A stretch of 64,000 nucleotides of DNA, taken from the sequence record PV683228.1. One strand, written 5' to 3'. This document shows positions 42,917-45,162 of this stretch, in pieces (within the stretch, counting starts at the first letter, position 1; each line of letters begins with the position of its first letter). The translations under genes were made by a program, and so were the position numbers. Origin of the DNA: Escherichia phage EcF-vB. Below the pieces are notes generated by a model, which saw nothing but the letters and a program-made list of their open reading frames with translations, made no database searches and was not told the DNA's origin.

Positions 42917-42994
42917 TGGCGGTTACGAAGGGACTTGAACCCTCATCATCTCCCGTGACAGGGGAGTATTTTAACCATATTAAACTACATAACC
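42917..42994 (-). tRNA. tRNA-Asp (anticodon GTC)
   Basis: Anticodon arm CUCCC-CUGUCAC-GGGAG; T-loop GGTTCAAGTCC. Confidence 0.7.
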
Positions 42995-43000
42995 TTTATT

Positions 43001-43088
43001 TGGTGTGCCGTGTAGGAGTCGAACCTACCGAGTCTCAATGACAAGGGATTTACAGTCCCCACCGCTACCATCTACGGGATAACGACAC
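43001..43088 (-). tRNA. tRNA-Tyr (anticodon GTA), class II
   Basis: 88 nt; anticodon arm GGGGA-CUGUAAA-UCCCU; long variable arm. Confidence 0.7.
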
Positions 43089-43097
43089 ATTTAAATT

Positions 43098-43174
43098 TGG
43101 CGGTTAGTCAGGGATTCGAACCCTGTGCCATTCGCTTAACAGGCGACCGCACATACCTTATGTGCTTCCTAACC
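43098..43174 (-). tRNA. tRNA-Asn (anticodon GTT)
   Basis: Anticodon loop CUGUUAA; T-loop GGTTCGAATCC. Confidence 0.7.
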
Positions 43175-43251
43175 TTAATACATTGCCAGACCGTGTTTTT
43201 CTTTATCCGCAAAAAGTAGTTTTTGTTGCTGGATACGGTCTTCTGCAAATT

Positions 43252-43327
43252 TGGAGGCGGGTGCAGGAGTCGAACCTGCCGATACCATGCTAATGAGACA
43301 TGTGAGACGCCCTTTCTCTATACCCGC
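43252..43327 (-). tRNA. tRNA with CAT anticodon (Met, initiator or Ile-lysidine type)
   Basis: Anticodon arm CAUGU-CUCAUUA-GCAUG; T-loop GGTTCGACTCC. Confidence 0.6.
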
Positions 43328-43419
43328 AATTCTTAATGACCAGACCAAATCTCTTCTTTGTCCGATTTACCTTCAGATGAATAAGATTAAGTTTGCTGTA
43401 ATTGGTCTTCTGTCAAAAC

Positions 43420-43497
43420 TGGCGTTCCAGAAGGGATTTGAACCCTCAGATATCCACTTTGAAAGAGTGGTGACTTTACCATTTCGTCTACTGGAAC
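43420..43497 (-). tRNA. tRNA-Glu (anticodon TTC)
   Basis: Anticodon arm CCACU-CUUUCAA-AGUGG; T-loop GGTTCAAATCC. Confidence 0.7.
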
Positions 43498-43504
43498 ATT
43501 AATT

Positions 43505-43581
43505 TGGTCTCTGTTGGAGGACTTGAACCTCCGGCCTTACCGCCCCAAACGGAACGCTCTACCAAGCTGAGCTAAACAGAG
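43505..43581 (-). tRNA. tRNA-Pro (anticodon TGG)
   Basis: Anticodon loop UUUGGGG; T-arm GGAGG-UUCAAGU-CCUCC. Confidence 0.65.
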
Positions 43582-43746
43582 ATAAACTTTTCAAACTCTA
43601 TGTAACCACTTTAACATTATTTTTTAGTGATTGTCAAGAACTTTTTTAAAATATTTTTCAGTATCTTAGAAAAGCTCTCATTTCGTTTCTATGTAGAACA
43701 TATTAAAGGGTATTAAACACATTGTCAATACCCTTTTTAAAACTTT

Positions 43747-45162
43747 TTACCAGATATAACGGTCAATCATTACTGCTTTGAGCATTACGCTGATTGGGTC
43801 AAACTTCTCACCACCAAGCAGAGCTTTTAAAGTGGCTGGAGAGAAACCAGATACCATTGCTACACCGTTATCCTTAACAGACACTTCGCAAGTACCATTA
43901 CGGTTTGCTAAGTACCAGAATACCAGTTGTGGCATCTCATATCCAGCTTTTTTGTACTTGCTCTGAATTGCTTCAAAGTTTGTACGACCGTTAGCTCCAT
44001 CAACCTGATTGAACTCCATATCGGAGAAGATGATAAGCTTACTTGGCATATCTTTCTGAGTCAAGTTATTTCTTTTACCTGTCTCAAGAATGCGGTCAAA
44101 AGCTGCTTGTAAGTTAGTTGAGCCATATTCAACGTGTCGCATCACCTGACGATGACGGTTTCGTAAATCACCACTCAGTTCAATGAAATGAGGGTTTGTT
44201 GAATAAACCATTAACTCGTTCTTAAAGCAACCTGTATTGCGTTCTGCTACATACAAAGCAAGTGATACACCAATATCAAGAGCCGTGATTGAACCAAGAT
44301 TCACCCAAGACATTGAGCTTGAGACATCAGTCATACACAAGATGTTCTCACCTTCTGCCATCCAGTTTGGTAGTGCTTTCCACTGCTCATTAGCAACATC
44401 TGCATTACCGTGCTTGATAGACTTAATCACATCGTATGGGTAAACAGCACCAGCGTTAATCTTAGTCTCACCTTTTGATAAAGACTCGATGTAAGCTTTG
44501 TAGCGTTCTCCATCTTTACGGTTAAACAGTTTTTGGTAACGTGCAGCAGCAAGTGAAGGAATCTTACTGTAGTCAATCTTACCAAACTCATTAGCAGAGA
44601 TTTTTTGCTCAACTGTATCAGATAGTGCAGACAACAGTGTACGGTACTCTTTCTCACTCAGGTTGGCAAATTTGCAGAAACGTTTTACAAACTGTTTATG
44701 ACGTGGTTTTACTCGTGGTAACCACTTAGCTGCCAAACCTGCTGTTGCAGGGTCTAGTAATGCTGCTTCTAAATGTTTGAAGGCATCTGTCTCAAAACGA
44801 GTACCTACGAAGATTTTAAAGTCATCAAAACGACCAAGTTCTGCAATCTTATCCATAATGCGAAGAACCTGTGTAGGCTCTAAAACTTTATCTTCAATCG
44901 CTTGAAGCAAAACAGTTCTGAAGGCTTTACGCTCACCCATACCTTCTCGTACATCTCGCATATGCAGTAAAATACGAACTGCAACATCAACATCCTCACG
45001 CAAAGCTTTGTAGAACAGGTCTGGTAAGATTTCTACATTGCTACGGCTTGAACCAGCAGCTTTGTAAAAGTCTACAAGAGCAGACATTGATGAAGTATGG
45101 TTTACAGCACCATTTTCAGTTCGACCTGCATGAAGGTGCGCATGTTTAAATAATTCGCTCAT
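43747..45162 (-). CDS. Ro60-like protein: helical N-terminal (TROVE-like) domain plus von Willebrand A domain
   Basis: 471 aa; vWA MIDAS residues DVSSS...GSTN...FSDME in C-terminal half; N-terminal helical region; sits at the head of the tRNA array. Confidence 0.5.
   Translation of the reverse strand: MSELFKHAHLHAGRTENGAVNHTSSMSALVDFYKAAGSSRSNVEILPDLFYKALREDVDVAVRILLHMRDVREGMGERKAFRTVLLQAIEDKVLEPTQVLRIMDKIAELGRFDDFKIFVGTRFETDAFKHLEAALLDPATAGLAAKWLPRVKPRHKQFVKRFCKFANLSEKEYRTLLSALSDTVEQKISANEFGKIDYSKIPSLAAARYQKLFNRKDGERYKAYIESLSKGETKINAGAVYPYDVIKSIKHGNADVANEQWKALPNWMAEGENILCMTDVSSSMSWVNLGSITALDIGVSLALYVAERNTGCFKNELMVYSTNPHFIELSGDLRNRHRQVMRHVEYGSTNLQAAFDRILETGKRNNLTQKDMPSKLIIFSDMEFNQVDGANGRTNFEAIQSKYKKAGYEMPQLVFWYLANRNGTCEVSVKDNGVAMVSGFSPATLKALLGGEKFDPISVMLKAVMIDRYIW

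Follow-up and report, generated by a model that had tools for sequence, protein, structure and literature searches.

Two unequal inverted arms at the tRNA cluster of the Escherichia phage EcF-vB record: a probable fold-back assembly artefact

Does a Felix O1-like phage carry two different sets of transfer RNA (tRNA) genes, or has its published record acquired a second set during assembly? The question is raised by sequence record PV683228.1 (Escherichia phage EcF-vB), of which we analysed one strand of 64,000 nucleotides (nt) (hereafter the window, meaning this whole stretch). Near its end, a tRNA gene cluster and its surroundings occur twice in opposite orientations, and the second copy lacks 1062 bp that are present in the first. 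Read at face value, the record points to a Felix O1-like phage whose genome is oversized and whose tRNA genes are duplicated, with two tRNA complements and a recombination site linked to a tRNA. We consider it probable (at roughly 80%) that the inverted copy, which is at least 11.7 kb long and attached at 52245/52246, is a fold-back chimeric assembly artefact and not part of the packaged chromosome. This reading draws on the form of the fold, on the decay of the sequence that adjoins it, on the kind of differences that separate the two copies, and on the absence of all of the rearrangements from relatives.

Two unequal copies of a tRNA cluster

Exact-seed repeat searches and blastn resolve the repeat into two arms around a single-copy loop and place the missing segment within it, the latter also by reading of both copies:

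41150-52245: arm A, lying in the stretch that is collinear with relatives
52246-53285: loop, single copy, 1040 nt, the centre of the palindrome; noncoding and, with respect to the references, continuous with arm B
53286-64000: arm B, the inverted copy of arm A, cut by the end of the window
42934-43995: the 1062-bp segment, which arm A has and arm B lacks
62216-62217: the deletion junction in arm B, blunt, with neither microhomology nor repeat

Arm A 41150-42933 corresponds to arm B 64000-62217, and arm A 43996-49207 corresponds to arm B 62216-57008, such that the paired blocks abut in arm B with neither overlap nor gap. Given the near-identity of the arms over more than 10 kb, there is no ambiguity about the gap, which is not a chance effect of alignment. 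Both copies, when read side by side, give the junction as GGCGGTTACGAAGGGA followed directly by TCCATCAACCTG, with zero microhomology. The segment covers the following genes (tRNAs by ARAGORN), the last two entries being the two copies of the protein-coding gene that the deletion enters (by open reading frame [ORF], tblastn, and Pfam):

42917-42994, minus strand: tRNA-Asp(GTC), 78 nt, of which 61 nt lie inside the missing segment
43001-43088, minus strand: tRNA-Tyr, absent from arm B
43098-43174, minus strand: tRNA-Asn, absent from arm B
43252-43328, minus strand: tRNA-Met(CAT), absent from arm B
43420-43497, minus strand: tRNA-Glu, absent from arm B
43505-43581, minus strand: tRNA-Pro, absent from arm B
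43747-45162, minus strand: intact gene for a DUF2828/DUF7788 protein of 471 amino acids (aa), which had been described as Ro60-like
61051-62219, plus strand: arm B copy of the DUF2828 gene, residues 1-390 only, running into the tRNA-Asp remnant

All that is left of tRNA-Asp in arm B is its 3'-terminal 17 nt (tcccttcgtaaccgcca, 42917-42933), the break falling at the T-loop/T-stem boundary of the cloverleaf. ARAGORN finds no tRNA at the arm B junction, which also fails to fold (z = +1.13). At its other end, the missing segment takes the terminal 249 nt (43747-43995) of the 471-aa ORF, and what remains of this gene in arm B is split over two frames by 1-nt indels (tblastn). The original prediction, made from the letters and a list of ORFs, had proposed just this absence from arm B; pairwise alignment of the arms confirmed it to the exact coordinate, and the genes lost, the position of the junction, and the truncation of the ORF were all borne out by ARAGORN, tblastn, and reading of both copies. 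Its further claim, that the two arms encode different tRNA complements, stands for the record but probably does not extend to the virus, as arm B itself looks like an assembly artefact.

Arm A is the ancestral or normal state at 42934-43995. The annotated relatives humlepung and finno have the intact gene and then tRNA-Pro, Glu, Met, Asn, Tyr, and Asp, as do two metagenome contigs that encode an identical 471-aa protein. The state in arm B, by comparison, was found nowhere: a 26-mer across 62216/62217 has no exact match in IMG/VR, in GTDB genomes, or in JGI metagenomes; the junction has no match in Escherichia coli genomes and plasmids; no phage record among those searched joins the two flanks directly; and no record exists of the 73-aa ORF that spans the junction.

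The fold and the differences between the arms

By sequence comparison, the window is that of an ordinary Felixounavirus genome (a Felix O1-like myovirus of the Ounavirinae). Nucleotide searches return hundreds of records of Escherichia, Salmonella, and Shigella phages that match it at 90-96%, and the genome is collinear with that of its relatives at high nucleotide identity: window 1-52236 follows the Escherichia phage finno (MN850619) from position 50810 through the end and start of that record to 16826, with ~95% identity overall and 90-98% outside variable regions. The reference order ends at 52245/52246, where the sequence jumps to finno 17849 and then runs in reverse, on the other strand, to finno 4414 (window 63917). 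Comparison with phage H12 gives the same picture, as arm A stops at about position 1170 and arm B begins at position 143 on the opposite strand. The fold is thus an inverted join with an intervening deletion of ~1 kb.

No long inverted repeat conserved in close relatives was found among 32 IMG/VR loci and the phage records searched: inverted self-matches within 10 kb of the DUF2828 gene are absent from all 32 loci, and each phage record searched aligns at a single place, with one arm at a time. Neither the fold nor either of the two deletion junctions in the arms was found in any relative examined. The 23 kb of the arms contain all three rearrangements; the other 41 kb of the window have no such event.

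The second of these deletions is in arm A, which also suffers at its inner end:

49203-49207: junction of a 719-bp deletion in arm A, with (A)TGTC microhomology
56290-57007: the segment absent from arm A, present in arm B and in all relatives
51386-52245: the 860 bp of arm A that adjoin the fold (its inner end), degraded

The 719-bp deletion takes out the whole of the finno_13 homologue and truncates two further genes, the homologues of finno_14 and of a D-Ala-D-Ala carboxypeptidase; arm A's join is shared by 0 of 209 phage records. Towards the fold, the identity between the arms is 100% to ~51385 and then falls to 85, 82, 70, 73, and 67% in successive 200-nt bins. Arm A 51386-52245 retains 77% identity to finno with 46 gap openings, and an ORF that is intact in arm B is destroyed here. 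At ≥90% identity, arm A's inner end has no matching record, versus 178 records for arm B's copy, and for this reason we regard the former as a degraded version of the same sequence and not as a different allele. Its appearance is that of unpolished read noise, not of divergence. The possibility that the inner end of arm A is a mosaic piece from another lineage was considered and rejected, in that it is farther than arm B's copy from all of the ~240 matching relatives.

Elsewhere, the arms differ almost solely by indels. Over ~9 kb there are only three substitutions between them, all of which adjoin indels. Ten 1-nt indels are private to arm A and nine to arm B, and at each such site the other arm agrees with the reference. 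Genes in both arms are broken by such 1-nt indels: the lysin and the finno_17 homologue in arm A, and in arm B the DUF2828 gene together with the homologues of finno_6 and finno_15. The rate is ~1 indel per kb per arm versus ~0.2 per kb in the single-copy part of the window, an increase of about five times that is expected if reads are shared between two copies. Indels of the same sort occur in the single-copy part, where, relative to finno, isolated 1-nt deletions split the genes for DNA polymerase (6399) and ligase (9829) as well as two ORFs of the structural module (30343, 32554, and 32651), several of them at homopolymers. These five deletions are probably consensus errors; since they strike single-copy essential genes, the record is likely an imperfectly polished consensus of the type that long-read assemblies produce.

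Sources of the inverted copy and of the gap

From this sequence-level signature we infer an origin in long-read data, a chimeric join, and a process along the following lines. The backbone of the fold and of arm B would have come from one or a few chimeric fold-back long reads; such reads could have arisen from polymerase template switching during whole-genome amplification, from nanopore read-through of template and then complement, or from a rare aberrant replication product. The assembler would then have built them into the contig, and polishing would have cleaned small errors wherever genuine reads could map. The 1062-bp gap would be an illegitimate join, blunt and confined to the read or molecule that served as backbone, and the 719-bp gap of arm A would be its mirror case; kilobase gaps of this kind lie beyond the reach of polishing because any reads with the missing sequence map preferentially to the other arm. 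Should arm B be an artefact, the 1062-bp deletion is presumably uninformative about the tRNA complement of the phage. The caveat attached to the original prediction, that arm B might have lost the 1062 bp through assembly collapse, hence points in the wrong direction: it is likelier that arm B should not exist at all.

Published experience makes such reads plausible. More than 85% of the chimeras formed in multiple displacement amplification (MDA) are inverted sequences with intervening deletions (Lasken and Stockwell 2007, PMC1855051), and in amplified phage plaques, including those of Felixounavirus, 48-63% of nanopore reads were chimeric, to the detriment of Flye assemblies (PMC13108922).

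Several points weigh on the other side. The artefact is deduced from a consensus sequence alone; kilobase deletions are not a typical basecalling error, and the 1062-bp gap may therefore reflect a real, rare molecule; each deletion hits one of two copies, which also fits selection acting on a real duplication; and, with arm B cut by the window, the extent of the inverted copy is known only as at least 11.7 kb.

If the duplication were real and heritable, a viable Felixounavirus would carry at least 11.7 kb of inverted repeat centred on an iteron-rich noncoding region, and each arm would have shed a different redundant piece (1062 bp from arm B, 719 bp from arm A), thereby relieving packaging pressure. 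One intact copy of every gene does remain, and the fold lies in repeat-rich noncoding sequence, where strand switching during replication is plausible. Against this, no relative has such a repeat, the near-full-length IMG/VR relatives measure 81.6-93.8 kb and would presumably have difficulty packaging at least 11.7 kb more, and the fold is adjoined by read-like noise where a clean junction would be expected of a real event. Moreover, the frameshifting 1-nt indels between the arms are of the same kind as those in the single-copy DNA polymerase gene, which marks them as errors and not as evolution. We thus hold a real duplication, which would be an unusual instance of a large inverted one in a virulent myovirus, to be decidedly unlikely. 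Slightly more doubtful still is the fuller version, a heritable palindrome undergoing reciprocal decay in which six tRNA genes and the DUF2828 tail are gone from one arm and three small genes from the other; if true, it would offer a snapshot of duplicate-gene loss under capsid-size pressure. A milder departure from the favoured reading accepts arm B as artefactual and takes the 1062-bp deletion for a real minority variant in the lysate, a spontaneous deletion mutant, missing the end of the DUF2828 gene along with the six tRNA genes, which happened to supply the backbone read. The clean junction, in the same orientation as its flanks, would suit such a mutant, as would the natural absence of Tyr, Asp, or Glu from some relatives, by which these tRNA genes are individually dispensable. 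Spontaneous phage deletions usually use short repeats, but the ends of this deletion have neither microhomology nor repeat; the junction is in no public genome or contig searched; and the other arm has a second unprecedented deletion, separated from this one by just a few kb on the common map, an indication of damaged molecules or reads and not of selected variants. We consider this origin unlikely, and it would leave the verdict on the two tRNA complements unchanged.

The breakpoint within tRNA-Asp had also been said to recall site-specific recombination at tRNA genes, and the T-loop/T-stem boundary at which it falls is indeed a common crossover position of tRNA-targeting integrases. This suggestion found no support. 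Local alignment of the ±60 nt around 42933/42934 and 43995/43996, with random window pairs as the control, detected no att-like repeat above chance (score of 11 direct and 9 inverted, versus 9.9 ± 2.5 for random pairs), and the lack of a core sequence common to the two breakpoints contradicts an integrase. Furthermore, tRNA-Asp is destroyed and not regenerated, and the second breakpoint lies inside a protein-coding gene. The remark that no integrase is seen agrees with the full genome of the collinear relative finno, in which none is annotated; no integrase or recombinase occurs among the finno features shown, the window's own ORFs not having been scanned one by one. A breakpoint inside a tRNA gene carries little information in any case, since tRNA genes fill ~39% of 41150-43581 (by arithmetic on the ARAGORN coordinates) and a chance hit is likely. 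Recombination by an integrase at tRNA-Asp is accordingly very improbable. The remaining proposal, a chimera of two co-assembled Felixounavirus strains of which one naturally lacks the segment, could appeal to the differing tRNA content of relatives and to the abundance of such phages in metagenomes. Three substitutions between the arms over ~9 kb, versus the 4-10% that separates the window from other Felixounavirus genomes, are far too few for two strains; in addition, no known strain has the junction, which truncates a conserved gene. On the near absence of substitutions we reject this proposal and put its chances close to nil.

The relevance of a fold-back artefact is mainly one of data quality, as the face-value reading would mislead comparative studies and studies of tRNA usage. 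The same signature (a looped fold-back, decay near the fold, arms that differ only by indels, and private deletions without precedent) can flag such records without recourse to reads.

Neighbouring features and comparison with known systems

The 471-aa protein matches DUF2828 and DUF7788 in Pfam and nothing else, and it belongs to PHROG 850, labelled "RNA-binding protein"; in public records, it goes by the names vWFA protein, DUF2828 family protein, and RNA-binding protein. The label "Ro60-like" could not be confirmed: searches of Pfam, NCBIfam, and PDB sequences revealed no TROVE domain and no similarity to solved Ro60 proteins, NCBIfam giving no match at all and the solved structures no match at E ≤ 0.01 (only a uridine kinase, at E = 1.3). 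A single-sequence AlphaFold model, with a mean predicted local distance difference test (pLDDT) score of 44 and thus too poor for searching, is helical in its N-terminal part and alpha/beta in its C-terminal part. An Rfam scan of 38000-46000 returned tRNAs and sub-threshold noise only, with no Y-RNA-like or other RNAs adjoining the gene.

In 18 of 18 IMG/VR relatives scanned, tRNA-Pro follows a full-length DUF2828 gene. Natural variation within the cluster is seen among the IMG/VR loci L008-L034 (at ~11580-12310 in each): Tyr is absent from L024, L026, L028, and L029, Asp from L013, and Glu from L029, and L011 and L018 have an extra tRNA-Trp. The tRNA-Met(CAT) at 43252-43328 on the minus strand is annotated in relatives, folds into a cloverleaf, and has its CCA end encoded; it goes unreported by the Rfam tRNA model at E ≤ 0.1 and may be an atypical tRNA.

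The loop (52246-53285), which is noncoding in relatives as well, contains 19 YTGTTAR motifs on one strand, a density of 19 per kb versus 1.2 per kb in the unique 41 kb, and AAAGCCTTATAAAGGGCTAT occurs in it three times. The array, which is iteron-like, could be a replication origin or a region to which a regulator binds. Several Felixounavirus records begin 140-200 bp from the fold point. The literature is in conflict on the termini of these genomes, with direct terminal repeats described in PMC11737134 and headful packaging in PMC13431587. Far from the arms, no nucleotide match to finno exists for window 15850-16737, within the long tail-fibre gene; the encoded protein matches at only 72% across its first 473 residues, and the interval is an ordinary host-range variable region.

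Three known systems bear on the locus. In the Felixounavirus relatives Felix O1, finno, humlepung (MN850564), and vB_EcoM_H12 (PP952733), the gene order is shared with the window, at ~95% nucleotide identity over window 1-52236, and the DUF2828 gene is likewise followed by Pro-Glu-Met-Asn-Tyr-Asp and the remainder of the cluster, with ~26 tRNAs in all; unlike the window, these genomes have no inverted second copy, no 1062-bp deletion, and no 719-bp deletion. Integrase-mediated attP/attB recombination resembles the present case in a single respect, the position of one breakpoint in the 3' part of a tRNA gene, and differs in that here there is no shared core, no integrase, no restored tRNA, and a partner site inside an ORF.

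The third comparison is with the chimeras produced by phi29 amplification (PMC1855051) and with fold-back long reads of phages (PMC13108922 and PMC12225698). Whereas the published cases come from amplified or nanopore data, the present one is known from its consensus. Priming microhomologies of 2-21 nt have been published for such chimeras; at the fold, any counterpart would be masked by the noise of arm A, which is only ~70% accurate there. The likenesses include further same-strand deletion joins with 0-5 nt of microhomology (here, 0 nt in arm B and 4-5 nt in arm A) and poor sequence near the junction. As in template-switch or MDA-type chimeras, the fold combines an inverted join with the intervening deletion of a nearby segment: a jump of ~1 kb and a return on the opposite strand, which together yield a palindrome with a 1040-nt loop.

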